Shown: positions 22,259 to 53,690 of the stretch, piece after piece
Layout of the letters: every line of letters starts with the position of its first letter
Numbering within the stretch: position 1 is the stretch's first letter
The notes under the pieces: model-generated
Seen by the model: the letters and a program-made list of their open reading frames with translations, nothing else
Database searches by the model: none
Told to the model about the DNA's origin: nothing
Made by a program: the position numbers and the translations under genes
From: an uncultured Oscillibacter sp.
Lineage (GTDB): Bacteria > Bacillota > Clostridia > Oscillospirales > Oscillospiraceae
Length of the DNA stretch: 64,000 nucleotides
NCBI GenBank assembly: GCA_900544615.1
Contig: UQVS01000001.1
Coordinates: 22,998 to 86,997 of the forward strand
Reading direction: 5' to 3'

Positions 22259-23953
22259 CTATGACAGATAGTTCAGCGGGTTTTTCGCCACGCCGTTATA
22301 CCGCACCTCAAAGTGACAGTGATTGCCGGTGGAATTTCCGGTAGAACCGGCCCGCGCTATCTGCTGGCCCTTATAGACGTGCTGCCCCACTCTGACGGTC
22401 AGGCTGGAATTGTGGCCGTACCGGGTAACGTAGCCGTTGCCGTGGTTGATCTCCACCAGGTAGCCGTAGCCGCTCATCCAGCCGGCGTAAGTCACCGTAC
22501 CGCCGTCGGCGGCATAGATAGGCGTTCCTCTGGGAACGGCGATATCGATGCCCTTATGGTTGGTGGAGCCGATGCCGCCGGGGGATCTCCGCCCGCCGAA
22601 GTAGGACGTGATCCGCCCACTGGTGGGCCAGCGGAAGCTGCCGGTGGGGAGCCATGTGGGCCGCACCTTGGTGCCTCGGAGCCGGTATTCCGTCACCGGC
22701 TCTTTCAGCGTCACGGAGGACAGAATGGTACGCTCCGTTTCCTCGCCGTTGACATAGGTGGTCTTGGCCAGCACATCCGCCTTGCCGTATTCTCCCTTGG
22801 AGGTAACTTTGTAGTCGCCCTGATAGAGACTGGCGTCGTCGGTATACTCAATGTTGTAAGCCACATCGTCCAGATACCGCTCCTGCTTTTCCACCGTCAT
22901 GGTCAGGTAGGGGACGGAGGCGGACAGGGTCAGCACCTCGCCGATCTGAAGCTTATTGATGTTGTAGCCGGGGTTCAGCGCCAGCAGCTCGCTGGAGGTC
23001 ATGTTGTTCTGCGCGGCGATCTGGGACCATGTATCGCCTTTTTTCACCTCATAGGTGACTTCAGCGGTTTTGGTGCTGTAGAGCAGTTCCGCAATATAGC
23101 CCAGATTCATGATGGCGTCTGTGGGGACGTATTCCTGCCGGATCTCCACATCCTCCTCGAATTTGCAGGAAATGGTATCCTCATCGGAAGCGGCCTTCTG
23201 AAGCTGCTCCAGCAGCTCGTCCAGAGCGCCCTCATAGGGGGTGGTGCCGATGCGCTCGCCGTTGACATACAGGCAGTAGGCGGAAGTCACCAGACCGATC
23301 TCATCGGACAGCTCCTCCTCATAGGCGGCCTTATCCTCAACGTCCTGCCGGAGCGTCCAGCCGGAATCATATTGCAGCAGGGAGGTGTCCAGCGTATAGG
23401 TCTCTCCCAGCGTTTCGGAGGTGATGGCTTCCAATTCATGCCGGACGCTCTCAGCCTCCGACTTGGAGGCCACCGTACCCAGCACATGGCCGTCATAGGT
23501 GACGGTGGTTCCCACTGTGAAAAAGGAGAAGAACAGGACGACGCCTGCCAGCACGCAGCTGCCGCCCAGAAATACCACGGCGTGCAGCCGCTTTTCCTTT
23601 TCAAACCACGTGCCGAATTTGCCGGAACGGTGGATTCGCTCCTTCCGTTTGCCCAGCAGGCGCTCCCGCAAACGGCTCGCCGCGGCAGGCAGCAGCCCCC
23701 AGAGCATCAGCAGCGCCTGCAGCGGCCCCCGGTTGGACTCCGGGAACCGGTTGGCCTTGGCCTCCCGGATCACCCGGCGGCAGCGGCGGCCGAACCAGCG
23801 GCTCTTCTTTCCGGCCCGGAACCGAAGCCGGCCCCAGAAATCCTCCGGCTCCGCCAGCACTCTGCGCTTCCGGCGGGGCTGCACGGCATTCTCCGTTTCA
23901 GAGACGCCGGTGCGCTCCGCCCGGTTATATTTTTTTTCGGTATTCTGACTCAT
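22259..23953 (-). CDS. LysM-domain M23-family peptidoglycan metalloendopeptidase
   Basis: Basic N-terminal tail, TM segment, LysM (GDTWSQIAAQNNMTSSELLALNPGY...IGEVL) and C-terminal M23 motifs (HKGIDIAVPRGTPIYAADGGTV...GHNS...GNSTGNHCHFEV). Confidence 0.88.
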   Translation of the reverse strand: MSQNTEKKYNRAERTGVSETENAVQPRRKRRVLAEPEDFWGRLRFRAGKKSRWFGRRCRRVIREAKANRFPESNRGPLQALLMLWGLLPAAASRLRERLLGKRKERIHRSGKFGTWFEKEKRLHAVVFLGGSCVLAGVVLFFSFFTVGTTVTYDGHVLGTVASKSEAESVRHELEAITSETLGETYTLDTSLLQYDSGWTLRQDVEDKAAYEEELSDEIGLVTSAYCLYVNGERIGTTPYEGALDELLEQLQKAASDEDTISCKFEEDVEIRQEYVPTDAIMNLGYIAELLYSTKTAEVTYEVKKGDTWSQIAAQNNMTSSELLALNPGYNINKLQIGEVLTLSASVPYLTMTVEKQERYLDDVAYNIEYTDDASLYQGDYKVTSKGEYGKADVLAKTTYVNGEETERTILSSVTLKEPVTEYRLRGTKVRPTWLPTGSFRWPTSGRITSYFGGRRSPGGIGSTNHKGIDIAVPRGTPIYAADGGTVTYAGWMSGYGYLVEINHGNGYVTRYGHNSSLTVRVGQHVYKGQQIARAGSTGNSTGNHCHFEVRYNGVAKNPLNYLS

Positions 23954-24147: not shown

Positions 24148-24942
24148 TCAGGACAGGAGCATCTTGTCGTTGGCCTCGTCGGAACCGCTGGCGCGGCTGA
24201 ACAGGGCCAGCAGATCGGGAACCGTCAGCTTCTTCTTGTCCTCGCCGGAGATGTCCACCACCACGCGGCCTGCGTCCATCATAATGAGCCGGTTGCCGTG
24301 GGCAATGGCGTCTTTCATGTTGTGGGTGATCATCAGGGTGGTCAGGCTGTTCTCCTGCACGATCTGGTCGGACAGCTCCAGCACCTTGGCGGCGGTCTTG
24401 GGATCCAGCGCGGCGGTGTGTTCGTCCAGCAGCAGCAGCTTGGGCTTCTTCAGGGACGCCATCAGCAGCGTCAGCGCCTGACGCTGGCCGCCGGAGAGGA
24501 GGCCCACCTTGGCGGTGAGACGATTCTCAAGGCCCAGATCCAGCTTTCGGAGCAGTTCCCTGTAATCCGCCCGTTCTGCGGCGGTAATGCCCCACTTCAG
24601 GCCGCGGGGCTGACCCCGGCGGGCCGCCAGCGCCAGATTTTCCTCGATCTGCATGGTGGGGGCCGTACCCATCATGGGGTCCTGAAACACGCGGCCCAGA
24701 AACGCCGCCCGCTTATGCTCCGGCAGCTTGGTAACGTCCTGTCCGTCAATGGTGATAGTGCCTTCGTCCACCTGAAACACGCCGGCAATGGCGTTGAGCA
24801 TGGTGGACTTGCCTGCGCCGTTGCCGCCGATGACGGTGACAAAATCGCCGTCGTTCAGGGTCAGGTTCAGGTGGTTCAGAGCTACCTTGGCGTTGATGGT
24901 ATTGGGGTTAAAGGTTTTGCAGATACCTTTCAGCTCAAGCAT
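24148..24942 (-). CDS. ABC transporter ATP-binding protein (COG1101-type, with C-terminal extension)
   Basis: Walker A GGNGAGKST, signature LSGGQRQ and Walker B LLLLDE. Start moved to MLELKGI (RBS GGGAGG). Confidence 0.88.
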   Translation of the reverse strand: MLELKGICKTFNPNTINAKVALNHLNLTLNDGDFVTVIGGNGAGKSTMLNAIAGVFQVDEGTITIDGQDVTKLPEHKRAAFLGRVFQDPMMGTAPTMQIEENLALAARRGQPRGLKWGITAAERADYRELLRKLDLGLENRLTAKVGLLSGGQRQALTLLMASLKKPKLLLLDEHTAALDPKTAAKVLELSDQIVQENSLTTLMITHNMKDAIAHGNRLIMMDAGRVVVDISGEDKKKLTVPDLLALFSRASGSDEANDKMLLS

Positions 24943-25855
24943 GGACGCTGCCTCCCTTCTTGGTGTGGATGTGGCTCTTCCAGTAAGGAATGGCAAGGAA
25001 CACAGCCACGATCAGGGCAGACACCAGCTTCAGGTCGTTGGTGTTCAGGCCCAGCTGCAAAACGATTTGCAGAACGATGTAGTAGATCACAGCGCCGATG
25101 GCCACGCCCAGCAGCTTCAGGGCGAAGTTGCCGAACAGCTTGCCGAAGGCCACCTCGCCGATGATGACGGCGGCAAGGCCGATGACGATGGCGCCGCGGC
25201 CCATGTTGATATCAGAAGAACCCTGGAACTGAGCCAGCAGGCCGCCGGCCAGAGCCACCAGACCATTGGAGACCATCAGACCCAGCACCACATTGGCGTT
25301 GGTGTTGATGCCCTGCGCCCGCGCCATGTTGGGGTTGGCGCCGGTGGCGCGGAGGGAGCAGCCCTTTTCCGTGCCGAAGAACCAGTACAGAATGGCAATG
25401 AGCGCCACCGTGAACACCACCAGCAGCGGCAGGGGATTGTCCAGACTGACTGTCCGCACATACCGCTGGGACACCAGCAGGTCGTATTTATCCACGCCTA
25501 CTGCCTGATTGGCCTTGCCGCCCATGATCCGCAGGTTGATGGAATACAGGGACAGCTGGGTGAGAATACCGGCCAGAATGGCAGGGATGCCGCATTTCGT
25601 GTGGAACACGCCGGTGACAAGACCCGCCAGCATACCGGCCGCAAAGGCGCACAGCAGGGCGGCCCACGGATTCACTCCCGCCCGGATCAGCATAACTGCC
25701 ACGGCGCCGCCGGTGGCCAGAGAGCCGTCCACTGTCAGGTCGGCCACGTCCAGAATTCGGAACGTGATGTAGACGCCGATGGCCATCAGGCCCCAGATCA
25801 GGCCCTGTGCCACCGCGCCCGGCAGCGCGTTGAAAAGGGAGGATAGAAAGCTCAT
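24935..25855 (-). CDS. ABC transporter permease (COG4120-type single permease)
   Basis: 306 aa and polytopic. It overlaps the ATPase start by 8 nt. Confidence 0.8.
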   Translation of the reverse strand: MSFLSSLFNALPGAVAQGLIWGLMAIGVYITFRILDVADLTVDGSLATGGAVAVMLIRAGVNPWAALLCAFAAGMLAGLVTGVFHTKCGIPAILAGILTQLSLYSINLRIMGGKANQAVGVDKYDLLVSQRYVRTVSLDNPLPLLVVFTVALIAILYWFFGTEKGCSLRATGANPNMARAQGINTNANVVLGLMVSNGLVALAGGLLAQFQGSSDINMGRGAIVIGLAAVIIGEVAFGKLFGNFALKLLGVAIGAVIYYIVLQIVLQLGLNTNDLKLVSALIVAVFLAIPYWKSHIHTKKGGSVHA

Positions 25856-25932: not shown

Positions 25933-26946
25933 TCAGCCCTCGATGGCGGTGTAGCCGTCCAGCGGGGTGATGCCCAGAGTATCGCAGATGGTGGGGTTGT
26001 ACTTGGGGGTTGCATCGGTGTACTCAATGGGCATGGTGGAGATGTCCGCCTCGCCGGTGAGAATCTTGGCAGCCATCTTGCCGGTGGTCACGCCCAGATC
26101 ATAGTAGCTGATGGACAGGGTTGCCACGCCGCAGCCGGAGCAGATGCCCTCTTCGCCGCAGATGGCGGGAACGCCGGCGGGAACCAGAATGTTGGCAATG
26201 GCCTCGGTGTTGGAAGCGGCGGCGTTGTCGGTGGGGATGTACACCACGTCGGAGTAGTCAGCGGCGGACTGGGTCACGGAAGCAACGTCGTTGGTATCGG
26301 TGAAGGCGAACTCCTGGGTCTCAATGCCCTTGTTGGCCAGGCAGGTGGCAACTTCCTCGATCTGATAGCGGGAGTTAGGCTCGCCAGAGCAGAACAGCAG
26401 GCCCACCTTCTTGGCATCGGGGAACCACTCGGTGATCATGTCGGCCTGCTTGCTCAGGTCGGCCAGATCGGAGGTGCCGGAGATGTTGCCGCCCACGGTG
26501 CCGTTGAAGTCATCAATGTCCAGAGCCACGCCATAAGCGGTGATGGAGGTACCCAGAATGGGGATATCGGCAGTTGCGGAAGCAGCGGCGGTCAGGGCTG
26601 CGGTGGCGTTGGCCATGATCAGATCCACGCCCTCGGACACATAGCCGTTGACAATGGTGGCGCAGTTGGTGGCGTCGCCGGAGGCGTTATTGTTCTCGAT
26701 CTCCACCTGACCGGGCAGTGCTTCGTTCAGGGCGTCAATGAACCCCTGCGTTGCAGCGTCCAGAGCTTCGTGCTGAACCAGCTGGCAGATGCCGACCTTG
26801 TATACGGTAGCGTCCGCAGAGGTGTCGGCGTCAGCAGGGGCGTCGGTGGAGGTGTCGGCGGGAGCATCGGTCTTGGAACCGCCGCAGGCGGCCAGAGACA
26901 GCATCATGGCCGCAGCCAGAGCAAGTGCAAGCATTTTCTTCTTCAT
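25933..26946 (-). CDS. ABC transporter substrate-binding lipoprotein (COG2984-type)
   Basis: MKKKMLALALAAAMMLSLAACGG lipobox followed by a ~300-aa periplasmic binding domain. Start moved to the second in-frame ATG, 9 nt after AAAGGAG. Confidence 0.8.
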   Translation of the reverse strand: MKKKMLALALAAAMMLSLAACGGSKTDAPADTSTDAPADADTSADATVYKVGICQLVQHEALDAATQGFIDALNEALPGQVEIENNNASGDATNCATIVNGYVSEGVDLIMANATAALTAAASATADIPILGTSITAYGVALDIDDFNGTVGGNISGTSDLADLSKQADMITEWFPDAKKVGLLFCSGEPNSRYQIEEVATCLANKGIETQEFAFTDTNDVASVTQSAADYSDVVYIPTDNAAASNTEAIANILVPAGVPAICGEEGICSGCGVATLSISYYDLGVTTGKMAAKILTGEADISTMPIEYTDATPKYNPTICDTLGITPLDGYTAIEG

Positions 26947-27001
26947 AATCATCTTCTCCTTTGAGTCCGTATCCGGAACAATGAACAGAATGCGTGACGG
27001 T

Positions 27002-27230
27002 AAAAAGAAAAGGGGCCTGTCCGCGGAACAGAACCCCCTCACATCCAACAGGCAAGTACCTTATGCCTGACAGGTCGTCTGTTCCTTTTCTGCATTGCGA
27101 AAGAAGCCCGCAAAAGAGCGTGCGTAACGGTAATAGGACGTAAACATTCCGTAACGCATGAGGGACTCCTTTCCGCCGTGTCCGGCCGGTTGATGGTATT
27201 ACAATACAGCTTTAAACGACTAAAGTCAAC
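27002..27230 (-). promoter_or_regulatory. regulatory leader of the ABC operon: promoter, 34-codon Tyr/Phe-rich leader ORF, intrinsic terminator
   Basis: On the minus strand: TTGACT-17-TATTGT at ~27222-27194, SD AAAGGAG and ATG at 27159. The ORF is MRYGMFTSYYRYARSFAGFFRNAEKEQTTCQA with its stop at 27058. A hairpin GGGG(TT)CTGT...ACAG(G)CCCC plus TTTTCTTTTT lies at ~27039-27002, about 60 nt before the SBP gene SD. Confidence 0.5.
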
Positions 27231-27368
27231 TGTAAATTTTGACAAAACGGAAAGAAAATTCACGGGAAGTTGAAACACTTTGACAAGTTCCTCCATTTCT
27301 GCTACACTACCAGCCACAGGAGGGACGTTTTCCCGCCCCCTGATCATTCTGGAAAAGAGGAATCTCAG

Positions 27369-28442
27369 ATGAACCATTTCAAGCAGATCGCCGCCGGGCT
27401 GGAGGCGCATCATCTGGACGCCGTGCTGCTGACCTGCGAGGCCAACCGCTTCTACGCCTGCGGCTTCCATTCCGCCGGAAGCGACGGCATTGCCGTAGTG
27501 ACCCGGCATCACAATTATTATTTTACCGACAGCCGCTATACCGAGGCCGCCGGGCGCTATGTGCAGGACGCGGAGATCCGGGAGGCCAACCGGGAGCATC
27601 CCTATTCCGCCCTCATCAATGAGGTGATCCAGCGGGAGCACATCACCCGCATGGGCTATGAGGATGAGTACATGACCGTGGCGGACTTCCGCCGGTTTTC
27701 GGAAAAGCTCTCCTGCGAACTGGTTCCCGCCACGCAGCTCCTGTGGGATCTCCGGGCCGTGAAGGACAGCGAGGAGCTGAACTGCATGATTCAGGCGCAG
27801 CGGATCACGGAAAAGGCCTTCGACGATATCCTAAAGGAGATCCGCCCCGGCGTCAGCGAAAAGGAGATCGCCGCCCGCATCCTCTACCTCATGCTGCACT
27901 ACGGCGCGGAGGACAAGTCCTTCGACCCCATCGTGGTGTCCGGCCCTAACGGCAGCCTGCCCCACGGCGTCCCCAGCGAAAAGCTGATTCAGGATGGGGA
28001 ATTCGTCACCATGGACATCGGCTGCAAGTTCGGCGGCTACTGCTCCGATATGACCCGCACCGTGGCGGTGGGCCATGTGACCGATGAAATGCGGACTGTT
28101 TACGAAACGGTGCTTCAGGCCCAGCTGGCAGGCATCGGCGCCGCCAAGGGCGGCATCACCGGTCACGATCTGGACGCCGCCGCCCGGCAGGTCATTGAGG
28201 ATGCCGGCTACGGCCCCTATTTCGGCCACAGCTTCGGCCACAGCGTAGGCGTGGAGATTCACGAAAACCCCAACGCCACCCCCTCCAACCACCAGCCTCT
28301 GCCGGTGGGGACCGTCATCAGCGAGGAGCCGGGGATCTACCTTCCGGGGAAGCTGGGGGTGCGGATCGAGGATGTCGTCATTTTGACGGAAAACGGCTGT
28401 CAGAACATCACGCTGTCTCCCAAAAATCTCATTATTTTATGA
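27369..28442 (+). CDS. M24-family Xaa-Pro aminopeptidase/dipeptidase
   Basis: Creatinase-like N-terminal domain and M24 metal ligands (HGVGVEIHE, EEPGIY, IEDVV). Start at MNHFK (RBS AAGAGGA). Confidence 0.85.
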   Translation: MNHFKQIAAGLEAHHLDAVLLTCEANRFYACGFHSAGSDGIAVVTRHHNYYFTDSRYTEAAGRYVQDAEIREANREHPYSALINEVIQREHITRMGYEDEYMTVADFRRFSEKLSCELVPATQLLWDLRAVKDSEELNCMIQAQRITEKAFDDILKEIRPGVSEKEIAARILYLMLHYGAEDKSFDPIVVSGPNGSLPHGVPSEKLIQDGEFVTMDIGCKFGGYCSDMTRTVAVGHVTDEMRTVYETVLQAQLAGIGAAKGGITGHDLDAAARQVIEDAGYGPYFGHSFGHSVGVEIHENPNATPSNHQPLPVGTVISEEPGIYLPGKLGVRIEDVVILTENGCQNITLSPKNLIIL

Positions 28443-48397: not shown

Positions 48398-48672
48398 TGA
48401 AATAGACTTTTTCTGGCTCAGACGCGTCGTATCAAAGCAAAAAAACGCCCTGAGCCGCTTTCCGGCTCAGGGCGAGTTACGCATAACCCGTGGTTCCACC
48501 TGAATTCCCCGTTGGAGGCGGGGCACTTCGTTCCCGATAACGGCGAGGTCCGGCGCAGCATTTCCGCCGCGCAGCTCCAGAGCGCCATCCCGTTTTTCCC
48601 GGAGGAGCTTTCACCGGCCGCTCCCTCTCTGTGCCTTTTGAAAACGGAACTTCTCTGTCACAGCTTTTACTC
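48398..48672 (-). ncRNA. T-box riboswitch leader of glyQS (probable GGC glycine specifier)
   Basis: On the minus strand: promoter TTGACA-17-TACAGT (plus coordinates ~48705-48677), a stem I with an AGAGA GA-motif, the T-box sequence AATTCAGGTGGAACCACGGG (plus 48487-48506), and the terminator GCCCTGAGCCGG-AAAG-CGGCTCAGGGC plus GTTTTTTT (plus 48473-48440). Confidence 0.85.
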
Positions 48673-52106: not shown

Positions 52107-53426
52107 TTGAATTCTGTCGCTGACGTATGGATCAACGTCCTTCAGCAGCTGAAGAAGGATCTCTCGGAAACCACCATCACCACATGGTTCGATGAACTAA
52201 CGGCGGTGGACATCCGGGACAATACCTTCTATCTATACTGCCCCAACGACTTCAAAAAACGATATATTGAATCCCTGTTCGTCAAAAACATCAAGGCCGT
52301 ACTTCTGGATGTGTTTTCCGTGGAGTTTGAGGTGAAGATCCTGGATGCGGACGAACTGGCTGAGTTCAACGGGAAGGTGGTCACCGCGCACATCAGCGAG
52401 CGGTTCACCTCCGCAGAGTTCACCTTCGATACCTTCGTGGTAGGCCCCAGCAACAAGCTGGCCTACGCCGCCTCCATGGCAGTGGCGGAGCATCCTGCCA
52501 AGAACTACAACCCCCTGCTGATCTACGGCGACTCCGGCTTGGGCAAGACGCACCTGCTGTACGCCATTGCCAACGTCATCCGGAAAAACGACCGCAACGC
52601 CAAGATCGTCTACATCAAGGGCGACGACTTCATCAACGAATTCATCGAGCTGATCCGGGCTGGCCGGGGCAGCGAATTCCGGGCCAAGTACCGGGAAGCC
52701 GACCTGCTGCTGGTGGACGACGTGCAGTTTGTGGCCGGCAAGGAGCAGGTGCAGAACGAGTTCTTCCATACTTTCAATAACCTGTACGAATCCGGCAAGC
52801 AGATCGTACTGACCTCGGATCGTCCGCCCTCTGAGATGACGCTGCTGGACGACCGTCTCCGCACCCGGTTCGAGTGGGGCCTGCTGGCAGACGTAACACC
52901 TCCTGATTTTGAGACCCGTCTGGCCATCGTAAAGAACAAGGCCGTGGCGCTGGGAATGGATCTGCCGGACAAGATCGCCAGCTACATTGCGGAAAACGTC
53001 ACCGCCAACGTCCGGCAGCTGGAAGGCACCGTCAACAAGATCCTTGCCTACAAGGATCTGTTGGGCAACGAGGCCGACGAGGCCACCGTTACCCGCGCCA
53101 TGCAGGATATTCTGAAAAAGAGCAACGAGTACATTCCCACCCCGGACAACATCCTCGATTACATCAGCAAATACTACGGGATTGAAAAAGAAATCATCTG
53201 CGGCCAGCAGCGGGTAAAGGACGCCGTGGCCGCCCGGCAGATCGCCATGTATCTGATCCGCAGCATGACCAATCTGCCGGTGGTGGAAATCGGCAAGGTA
53301 TTCGACAACCGGGATCACTCCACTGTACTCTATTCTCTGAAGCAGGTCGAAAAGCAGATGAAGAAGGATCCCTCTTTTGCCGAGACGGTGAAAGAGATCA
53401 AAACCAATATCAACAACCGGCATTAA
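52107..53426 (+). CDS. dnaA: chromosomal replication initiator DnaA
   Basis: AAA+ Walker A GDSGLGKTHLL, Walker B LLLVDDVQF and C-terminal HTH domain IV. Start placed at the in-frame TTG (RBS AGAGAGG 8 nt upstream), giving MNSVADVWINVLQQLKKDLS, which aligns with typical DnaA N-termini. Confidence 0.92.
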   Translation: MNSVADVWINVLQQLKKDLSETTITTWFDELTAVDIRDNTFYLYCPNDFKKRYIESLFVKNIKAVLLDVFSVEFEVKILDADELAEFNGKVVTAHISERFTSAEFTFDTFVVGPSNKLAYAASMAVAEHPAKNYNPLLIYGDSGLGKTHLLYAIANVIRKNDRNAKIVYIKGDDFINEFIELIRAGRGSEFRAKYREADLLLVDDVQFVAGKEQVQNEFFHTFNNLYESGKQIVLTSDRPPSEMTLLDDRLRTRFEWGLLADVTPPDFETRLAIVKNKAVALGMDLPDKIASYIAENVTANVRQLEGTVNKILAYKDLLGNEADEATVTRAMQDILKKSNEYIPTPDNILDYISKYYGIEKEIICGQQRVKDAVAARQIAMYLIRSMTNLPVVEIGKVFDNRDHSTVLYSLKQVEKQMKKDPSFAETVKEIKTNINNRH

Positions 53427-53459
53427 AGGGGTCTGCCTGCACCGTTTTTATACAATTCG

Positions 53460-53690
53460 TATACTTTCTTTTTCCACATTTTCCGTTTAAAAGGAAAACT
53501 GTTCCTGTGGAAAAAGAAGCCGGTGGAAAAACCATCCCTTTCTACCATTTTTTCTCCACAAGCTGCGTGGAAGCTTTTTTCCTTGCACTGTAAGGAATTT
53601 TTCGGCTTTTCCACATTTTTTTACACTACGAATACTTACTGCTAAAAACTTTTATGTTTCTTTTTTTAGAGAAAACAGAGAGCATCAGGA
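53460..53690. promoter_or_regulatory. oriC: cluster of >=5 DnaA-box-like TTTTCCACA repeats (both orientations) followed by an AT-rich unwinding element
   Basis: TTTTTCCACA at ~53470, TGTGGAAAAA at ~53506, GGTGGAAAAA at ~53522, TTTCTCCACA at ~53551, TTTTCCACA at ~53607, then GCTAAAAACTTTTATGTTTCTTTTTTTAGAGAAAAC. Confidence 0.75.

Follow-up and report, generated by a model that had tools for sequence, protein, structure and literature searches.

A putative Tyr/Phe-codon leader-peptide attenuator upstream of a predicted tyrosine-type ABC importer in Oscillibacter and related gut bacteria

Introduction

In Escherichia coli, the leaders of pheL-pheA and pheM-pheST carry aromatic codons at which stalling of the ribosome is taken to favor read-through (PMC11802643, PMC3082878), and in Corynebacterium glutamicum, the aroR leader upstream of aroF, with its Phe-Tyr-Phe codons, mediates an attenuation reported to respond to phenylalanine and not to tyrosine (PMC11802643). 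Among Firmicutes, a leader-peptide attenuator has been shown for ilv-leu of Staphylococcus aureus, which involves leucine (PMC5794164), and histidine attenuators have been predicted in the Bacillus cereus group, Peptostreptococcaceae, and Erysipelotrichales; in his operons, such leader peptides, T-boxes, and a repressor take one another's place from lineage to lineage (PMC9413887). The tryptophan importer TrpXYZ of Streptococcus suis is controlled by a Trp T-box (PMC9382623), and an initial annotation of the locus studied here, which linked streptococcal members of this transporter family to tryptophan uptake, was correct on this point. Here, we analyze positions 27,002 to 27,230 of a 64-kb stretch of DNA from an uncultured Oscillibacter sp. 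(contig UQVS01000001.1, positions 22,998 to 86,997; hereafter, the window), where a short open reading frame (ORF) rich in tyrosine and phenylalanine codons and an intrinsic terminator precede the genes of an ATP-binding cassette (ABC) importer. On the basis of sequence comparisons, we propose, with a probability of roughly 0.7, that this region acts by ribosome-mediated attenuation, in which a leader peptide would control transcription of an ABC importer of the tyrosine type.

Like pheL and pheM, the element consists of a short ORF rich in aromatic amino acid codons and then an intrinsic terminator. It differs from them in that Tyr and Phe codons are mixed, with Tyr dominant in two of the ORF versions described below (class B and the single locus L053); in its longer ORF (from 27 to 49 codons in class B and in class A, to which the window belongs; 23 in L053), whose stop lies 10-54 nucleotides (nt) before the terminator; in its target, which is an ABC transporter for uptake, in Clostridia, and not a biosynthetic or synthetase gene in Proteobacteria; and in that no Rfam leader family matches it. 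With aroR it shares a mixed Phe/Tyr leader peptide for an aromatic amino acid gene, but aroR has three regulatory codons, whereas 8-10 aromatic codons are present here, the transporter and the T-boxes of orthologous loci point to tyrosine, and both phylum and target are different. Position, transporter family, and, as proposed here, a terminator-based decision on tRNA charging are shared with the Tyr T-boxes of four orthologous loci (L041, L017, L019, and L020) and with the Trp T-box of S. suis, which, unlike a leader peptide, bind uncharged tRNA directly and without translation. The ilv-leu and his leaders of Firmicutes offer a parallel in that ribosome-mediated attenuation stands beside T-boxes and is interchangeable with them between lineages, although the amino acids there are leucine and histidine. 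Finally, the binding protein of the importer, whose own ligand binding is a prediction, resembles CD0873, the tyrosine-binding lipoprotein of Clostridioides difficile (structure 6HNI), in having the equivalents of both proposed Tyr-selectivity residues, Glu-263 and Tyr-279. A literature search, with most subscription journals outside its reach, turned up no account of a leader ORF with Tyr/Phe codons, be it for this transporter, for Oscillospiraceae, or for Firmicutes.

Results

The element lies in a spacer of 413 nt between an M24 Xaa-Pro peptidase gene and the ABC operon, and on the minus strand of this spacer the order is promoter, ribosome-binding site (RBS), short ORF, intrinsic terminator, and binding-protein gene. 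The features, with coordinates in the window, are as follows.

27201..27229, minus strand: sigma-70-type promoter TTGACT-17-TATTGT, from a promoter scan, with 9/12 consensus matches
27209-27216, minus strand: TTTAAAGC inside the promoter spacer, conserved across otherwise diverged class A leaders
27166..27174, minus strand: Shine-Dalgarno (SD) sequence of the leader ORF, GGAAAGGAG, read from the sequence, 6 nt from the ATG at 27159
27061..27159, minus strand: leader ORF, 32 codons and a stop, translated as MRYGMFTSYYRYARSFAGFFRNAEKEQTTCQA, with 4 Tyr, 4 Phe, and no Trp
27106..27123, minus strand: hairpin P1, GCACGC-TCTTTT-GCGGGC, codons 13-18 (AR.FAG), from the pairing analysis of class A
27099..27109, minus strand: GGGCTTCTTTC, the codons Gly18-Phe19-Phe20-Arg21, complementary to the SD region GAAAGGAGTCC (27172-27162)
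27078..27085, minus strand: GGAACAGA, codons 25-28, candidate 5' strand of an antiterminator, pairing with TCTGTTCC at 27032-27025
27069..27074, minus strand: CCTGTC, candidate antiterminator strand, pairing with GACAGG at 27021-27016 and also part of a small local hairpin
27002..27038, minus strand: intrinsic terminator, GGGGGTTCTGTTC / CGC / GGACAGGCCCC followed by TTTTCTTTTT, from a terminator scan and local fold
25933..26952, minus strand: substrate-binding lipoprotein, PF04392 (Pfam, 177 bits), with a Tyr-type pocket formed by Glu267 and Tyr283
24935..25855, minus strand: ABC permease, BPD_transp_2 (Pfam, 100 bits)
24148..24942, minus strand: ABC ATPase (Pfam, 105 bits; translation)

The initial annotation had placed the promoter, a strong SD sequence, and the ATG at 27159 on the minus strand, and all of these are present; the ORF, which it had counted as 34 codons, comprises 32 codons and a stop, with the four Tyr and four Phe codons originally reported. 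The 5' untranslated region of about 35 nt ends in GGAAAGGAG. The stop codon at 27063-27061 is followed by a 22-nt spacer and then, again as first described, by the terminator (GC-rich hairpin at 27038-27012 and TTTTCTTTTT tract at 27011-27002; local fold, -19 kcal/mol) and by the SD sequence of the binding-protein gene, which lies about 50 nt past the terminator (GGAG at 26959-26956, start at 26952, lipobox LAAC). A promoter scan between the terminator and this gene gave no promoter-like site, and the window leader as a whole is more stable than its shuffles (z = -3.15). Both the promoter and the TTTAAAGC motif are kept in diverged class A leaders, as is the SD sequence (C)GGCRGAARGGAG in most of them; TTTAAAGC may act as an operator, or as a promoter element of a special kind, and would then add a second layer of control. 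The same motif occurs in locus L068, where the promoter is present and the leader ORF is absent.

The leader ORF is more than a chance occurrence. When an ORF was required to have an SD sequence and ATG, at least 20 codons, and at least 6 aromatic residues within any 12-residue stretch, just 9 of 3000 dinucleotide-preserving shuffles of the 413-nt spacer contained one, and on both strands of the 64-kb window the leader ORF is the sole example. A six-frame scan of 665 kb of related loci yielded 45 aromatic-rich ORFs with SD sequence and ATG, 43 of which stand directly upstream of the binding-protein gene and on its strand, the other two being antisense in the same spacer. Neither the rest of the window nor the flanks of the related loci yielded a second aromatic-rich leader, so that we see no evidence here for a wider regulon.

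A scan for the binding protein in one genome per species gave 80 loci, all from Oscillospiraceae and relatives (Oscillibacter, Dysosmobacter, and Hominicoprocola and, more distantly, Faecalibacterium), and in about 50 of them an aromatic-rich ORF with a strong RBS is found upstream of the orthologous gene. These ORFs come in at least three sequence-unrelated versions with unbroken frames of 23-49 codons: class A, in about 27 loci, the window among them (..[Y/F run]..AR..FAG[L/F/R][Y/F][Y/F]..); class B, in 22 loci (..YR[F/Y]YYYSYFYF.K.KV.AICDAR..); and a YYYYY type in one locus, L053 (MFGRTSYYYYYSS.., with five Tyr codons in a row). A terminator is found at the matching place, 10-54 nt past the stop, in 24 of the 25 representative leaders tested. 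The class A peptide profile, with a 43-amino-acid member as its first sequence, was run against 5.8 billion proteins and returned 101 matches, all of them small proteins that are unnamed or "hypothetical." For three divergent members of the profile, the ORF stands immediately upstream of the same three-gene operon, and the neighbors on its other side vary (ClpB or glycerate kinase in the two members with contigs that reach upstream, and the M24 peptidase in the window). In metagenomes, a 24-nt pattern from the window's subfamily gave 119 matches, and the 32-codon frame is unbroken in all of the 115 usable copies, which comprise 11 peptide variants, every one with 8-10 Tyr/Phe.

The L053 leader (MFGRTSYYYYYSSNPAVVCAGQA at L053:200-271, with a terminator) is the most classical-looking Tyr leader of the set; its binding protein is 64% identical, and the metagenome-assembled genome is labeled Spirochaetales. 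A different arrangement, with leaders of about 170 nt and GC-rich hairpins, is seen in L004 (about 3107, upstream) and L006 (about 3081, upstream), whose binding proteins are 82% identical; these leaders showed no aromatic ORF, no T-box, and no Rfam match at gathering score, and they look like a fourth, unexplained leader type for the same transporter.

The initial annotation had named conservation of the mini-ORF upstream of orthologous transporters as a check, and what is conserved is the frame, the RBS, and the Tyr/Phe content (about 50 of 80 loci and 115 copies), together with the placement of the aromatic codons beside a hairpin within the ORF and the terminator; the peptide sequence is not kept. 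Variable alignment columns number 53, 59, and 62 at the three codon positions, with no third-position excess, a result that argues against a functional peptide and cannot prove translation. The peptide sequence is not under purifying selection. Tyr makes up 12.2% and Phe 10.3% of the residues in 42 unique ORFs (background, about 2% and 4%), and Trp 0. Within subfamilies the aromatic count is steady at 8-10, and single positions toggle among Ser, Tyr, Phe, and Ile; between L009 and L010, for example, Ser and an aromatic residue are swapped between positions 6 and 8. A count held through such positional turnover is the pattern expected of regulatory codons and not of a functional small protein. 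The latter possibility, that the ORF encodes a small protein such as an accessory factor of the transporter and that the hairpin behind it is a leaky terminator or a processing site, would agree with the predictions of gene callers in many assemblies (the 101 profile matches) and with the constant linkage of the ORF to the transporter. We nevertheless regard it as very unlikely, given the fast turnover of residues and missing signature of purifying selection, the unrelated peptide classes at the same position, the lack of a Pfam match or of a hydrophobic segment (the peptide was read by eye), and an AR..FAG motif that is explained by an RNA hairpin whose compensatory changes alter the amino acids.

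This hairpin, GGYCNGC, loop, GCNGGCC, accounts for AR..FAG, which is the sole apparent peptide motif of class A. Because MAFFT put the arms of hairpins with differing loop lengths in different columns, the arms were extracted in register and the loops trimmed to 3 nt. Across 26 distinct sequences, 90.7% of the cells are paired, a fraction that is inflated by the choice of the arms by best complementarity and favored also by the trimming of the loops; compensatory changes are seen in three of the seven pairs (GGUCAGC/GCUGGCC, GGUCUGC/GCAGGCC, and GGCCCA/UGGGCC, for instance). None of 500 shuffles reached these values, and sliding the partner columns reduced pairing to 31-45%. The aromatic codons cluster on either side of the hairpin: among 30 leaders of class A, an aromatic codon occurs with a frequency of 0.80, 0.50, 0.83, 0.47, and 0.37 at the positions 2-6 codons upstream of the 5' arm and of 0.67 and 0.63 at the first two codons past the 3' arm. 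Beyond 6 codons upstream, the frequency is at most 0.20, and farther downstream it is near zero, with codons 6 and 8 (0.21 and 0.26) as exceptions. Were a ribosome to pause at the upstream cluster, it would cover the hairpin's 5' arm and open it. In class B, an 11-bp hairpin (AUCGCUUUUAC/GUAAGAGCGAU, paired by eye) has a 5' arm that itself consists of Tyr/Phe codons.

A further helix, between GGGCTTCTTTC and GAAAGGAGTCC, is predicted both in the single-sequence fold of the window leader and in the consensus fold of 39 leaders of its subfamily. In the consensus, it joins the RBS to the Gly-Phe-Phe-Arg codons (GAAAGGAGUYC:GGGCUUCUUUC); the same fold contains a hairpin over the AUG, the terminator, and, in codons 27-31, a small hairpin in which a single pair is compensatory (A-U in 7 sequences and G-C in 32). 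These 39 leaders are too alike for much covariation to be obtainable, and the pairs of the GGGCTTCTTTC:GAAAGGAGTCC helix barely vary among them and have no covariation support.

Covariation in the hairpin within the ORF, the lack of a third-position excess, and the stability of the leader fold (z = -3.15) would also suit a structured RNA that senses a signal unrelated to translation, such as a riboswitch or the target of an RNA-binding protein, the frame then being a by-product of U- and A-rich sequence; TTTGCGGGC in class A and GTAAGAGCGATTTGTGATGCCCGT in class B, stretches whose nucleotides are conserved even where changes would be synonymous, point the same way. Such an RNA is, however, hard to square with an ATG, a well-spaced strong RBS, and an unbroken frame in three unrelated classes and in 115 of 115 metagenomic copies, or with a Tyr/Phe enrichment that is confined to this frame and is kept in number while positions move. 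In Rfam, moreover, the leader has no riboswitch or leader family match (best score 16.7 bits, E about 1; top scores of 12-17 bits against cut-offs of 33-80), which favors the initial annotation, for which a match to a known riboswitch would have been a refutation, and orthologous loci use a T-box that senses tRNA-Tyr. We therefore consider this explanation very unlikely. Seven other leaders likewise had no Rfam match near the gathering score, the only hit in a leader region being BSnc119 in L054 at 23.2 bits against 115. One candidate was rejected: the orphan "cow-rumen-1" RNA at 27168-27233 (minus strand), across the promoter and 5' untranslated region (14.5 bits, E = 1.7), with CCGGACACG..CG.A.AGG in common, is absent from the seven other leaders and is thus probably a chance match.

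The signal is suggested by the orthologous loci. Stem I, specifier loop, and T-box sequence are all missing from the window leader, and a search of 26900-27400 with the T-box model (RF00230) found no T-box even at E up to 10, in line with the first reading of the sequence, although this model does detect T-boxes at other places in the window and in orthologous loci. In L041, L017, L019, and L020, whose binding proteins are about 75-76% identical to that of the window, a T-box stands in place of the leader ORF (95.9, 88.8, 86.2, and 84.4 bits, respectively; gathering score, 93), with the specifier loop GAA-A-UAC-A and the T-box sequence UGGUAC. UAC is a Tyr codon, and we take the U of UGGUAC to fit an A73 discriminator base. 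With a tRNA-Tyr-sensing T-box in these orthologues, tRNA charging is pointed to as the signal.

The transporter leads to the same amino acid. Pfam assigns an ABC_sub_bind binding protein, a BPD_transp_2 permease, and an ABC ATPase to one operon, in which the last 8 nt of the permease gene are shared with the start of the ATPase gene. The NCBIfam TrpX score of the binding protein, 198.8 bits, is under the cut-off of 390, which makes the protein a relative of the tryptophan binder and not its equivalog. Its closest solved structures are CD0873 of C. difficile (6HNI, with Tyr), SP1069 (3LFT, Trp), and VC_1101 (3LKV, Phe), CD0873 being the nearest of all with E = 2e-42 and 149 bits in the search of the Protein Data Bank (a remote match). 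In CD0873, Glu-263 hydrogen-bonds the Tyr hydroxyl and is replaced by Ala in Phe and Trp binders, and Tyr-279 excludes Trp and is replaced by Gln in the Trp binder (PMC6816091). Glu267 and Tyr283 of the window protein align to positions 263 and 279 ("CGEEG" with "AAESG" and "SISYYD" with "GINYEK"), and this Glu/Tyr pair is present in 85 of 85 orthologues. The aromatic amino acid importer first suspected at this locus can accordingly be narrowed down: three independent lines, the structural relatives, the Tyr-type pocket, and the Tyr T-box of orthologues, support tyrosine, perhaps together with phenylalanine, as its predicted substrate. For the regulatory signal, tyrosine first and phenylalanine second is the more likely order, and the Phe codons may be a second input or a pyrimidine strand that pairs with the RBS.

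Discussion

The anatomy of the leader and its conservation, the placement of the aromatic codons relative to the hairpin, a transporter of the tyrosine type, and the Tyr T-box of orthologues lead us to infer that the ORF is translated, that ribosomes stall in it, and that an antiterminator makes the operon responsive to Tyr/Phe supply. Transcription would start from the promoter at 27229-27201, and the 32-codon ORF would be translated off its strong RBS. With ample charged tRNA-Tyr, and probably tRNA-Phe, the ribosome would pass the Tyr/Phe codons and reach the stop; once it had gone, the hairpins in and after the ORF would re-form, the terminator at 27038-27002 would fold, and most transcripts would end at 27011-27002, ahead of the binding-protein gene. 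With low charging, the ribosome would instead stall on the aromatic codons just upstream of, or just after, the hairpin within the ORF, hold that hairpin open, and leave the downstream RNA free to capture the emerging 5' arm of the terminator, upon which RNA polymerase would read through into the importer genes. The capturing RNA would be GGAACAGA in the window, which lies 15-22 nt beyond the last Phe codon and hence outside the stalled ribosome, and the 3' arm of the in-ORF hairpin in other subfamilies. The helix between RBS and Phe codons could restrict the leader to a single round of translation.

An antiterminator pairing in the window leader is weakly supported. The minimum-energy fold pairs GGAACAGA with UCUGUUCC (27032-27025, in the 5' arm of the terminator); the duplex between the pre-terminator region and this arm stands out from shuffles (z = -2.8, p = 0.03); and the complementarity of GGAACAGA is kept in 38 of the 39 subfamily leaders (alignment read by eye), with no compensatory changes. 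Across 22 leaders, which are not independent of each other, pairing of the in-ORF hairpin's 3' arm with the terminator 5' arm has a mean z of -1.21 and is negative in 20, and in about 10 leaders it ranks in the top 10% of leader windows. The antiterminator originally put forward, CCTGTC at the 3' end of the ORF with GACAGG in the 3' arm of the terminator, does have the complementarity described, but in the window it does no better than shuffles (z = -1.1), and we rejected it; pairing between these two regions is significant only in the L014/L024 and L007 groups, neither in the window nor family-wide.

Several results weigh against attenuation of the kind proposed. Hairpin P1 of the window is weak, with five pairs and one mismatch (GCACGC/GCGGGC), and is stronger in other subfamilies. 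In 24 representative leaders, pairing of the ORF end or spacer with either arm of the terminator does not exceed that of shuffled controls (mean z = -0.36 and -0.43). When equilibrium folding was combined with a ribosome footprint at each codon, most leaders had a terminator that dominated at any ribosome site; for the window leader, the full terminator rose in probability from about 0-0.1 with stalls at codons 13-24 to only about 0.2-0.3 close to the ORF end, and in transcripts cut before the terminator 3' arm, sequestration of the 5' arm hardly tracked the position of the ribosome. The pocket of the binding protein, which looks Tyr-specific, does not account for the Phe codons. Lastly, the preference for TTT among Phe codons (71% in leader ORFs, against 75% TTC in neighboring genes; p = 9e-9) fits slower wobble decoding, and would then speak for the model, but it fits constraints of RNA and composition as well: it could stem from AT-rich intergenic sequence or from pairing with the RBS, and not from a tuning of sensitivity. 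On the other side, the terminator is thermodynamically dominant in classical attenuators too, and these are also kinetically controlled, so that the folding results neither favor the model nor exclude it.

Folding models without a clear codon-position-specific switch are also what one might expect if attenuation depended on the ribosome but answered to general translation speed or stress (antibiotics or global starvation) rather than to Tyr/Phe, and the same anatomy is found in attenuators that answer to translation inhibitors, such as the bmrCD or erm/mef leaders (PMC4191407, PMC4335068). Selection on the number and placement of Tyr/Phe codons, an amino acid importer with a Tyr-type pocket, and the Tyr T-box of orthologues speak against so general a signal, and we judge it about as improbable as the structured RNA considered above. 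Alternatively, the nascent peptide could sense free tyrosine in the exit tunnel, in the manner of TnaC with tryptophan, in place of tRNA charging. An aromatic-rich nascent chain is compatible with this, with nothing specific in its favor, whereas the peptide sequence is not conserved, the T-box of orthologues induces on low charging, and an importer would not be expected to be induced when its substrate is plentiful; we regard tunnel sensing as extremely improbable and attenuation through the charging of tRNA-Tyr, and probably tRNA-Phe, as the preferred reading.

The mechanism would be of a classical kind, and the conceptual surprise is thus modest; what stands out, as far as can be judged from sequence, is the probable tyrosine signal, the uptake target, the three independently built versions, and the exchange with a Tyr T-box. 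We see about an even chance that these leaders make up an undescribed and widespread family of Tyr(/Phe)-codon attenuators in human-gut Oscillospiraceae, with at least three independent versions, that replaced a Tyr T-box in front of a CD0873-type importer. If true, this would be the first leader-peptide attenuator with tRNA-Tyr charging as its main signal and an uptake system as its target, and its geometry—aromatic codons flanking a hairpin within the ORF and Phe codons doubling as an anti-SD strand—would be unusual. The attenuator reading would in any case assign a substrate and a regulatory signal to an unannotated operon that is common in abundant human-gut Oscillospiraceae (Oscillibacter, Dysosmobacter, and Hominicoprocola), explain about 100 catalogued small "hypothetical proteins" as regulatory leader ORFs, and provide a clean natural case in which T-box and leader peptide, both sensors of tRNA charging, have been swapped before the same genes in sister lineages. 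The tyrosine that gut Clostridia take up goes into phenolic products such as p-cresol (PMC6816091), so that control of this importer would be of physiological interest.

Additional observations

The M24 Xaa-Pro aminopeptidase gene on the far side of the spacer (27366-28442, plus strand) is served by a divergent promoter, TTGACA-17-TACACT with an extended -10 TG (27280-27308, plus strand), which stands back to back with the leader promoter at a distance of about 50 nt. A T-box leader of the window, at 48465-48670 on the minus strand (106.6 bits), has its specifier aligned as GGC (Gly) and the T-box sequence UGGAACC, which makes it probably a glycine T-box unrelated to the leader ORF; in the related loci, further T-box leaders occur near the transporter at L005:6874-7113 (61 bits) and L014:1223-1464 (94.5 bits). 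The only other small ORF in the window with five aromatics per 12 residues, at 53423-53548 on the minus strand (MVERDGFSTGFFFHRNSFPF..), has a weak RBS and is for that reason probably a chance occurrence. Past the operon, L081-L083 (7178-7936) and L086 (7126-7884) carry one more ABC ATPase gene, with a gene for a LysE-family exporter on the strand opposite, and the window has a different gene, at 22259-23953 on the minus strand, whose 564-amino-acid product appears M23 peptidase-like, by eye, at its C terminus.

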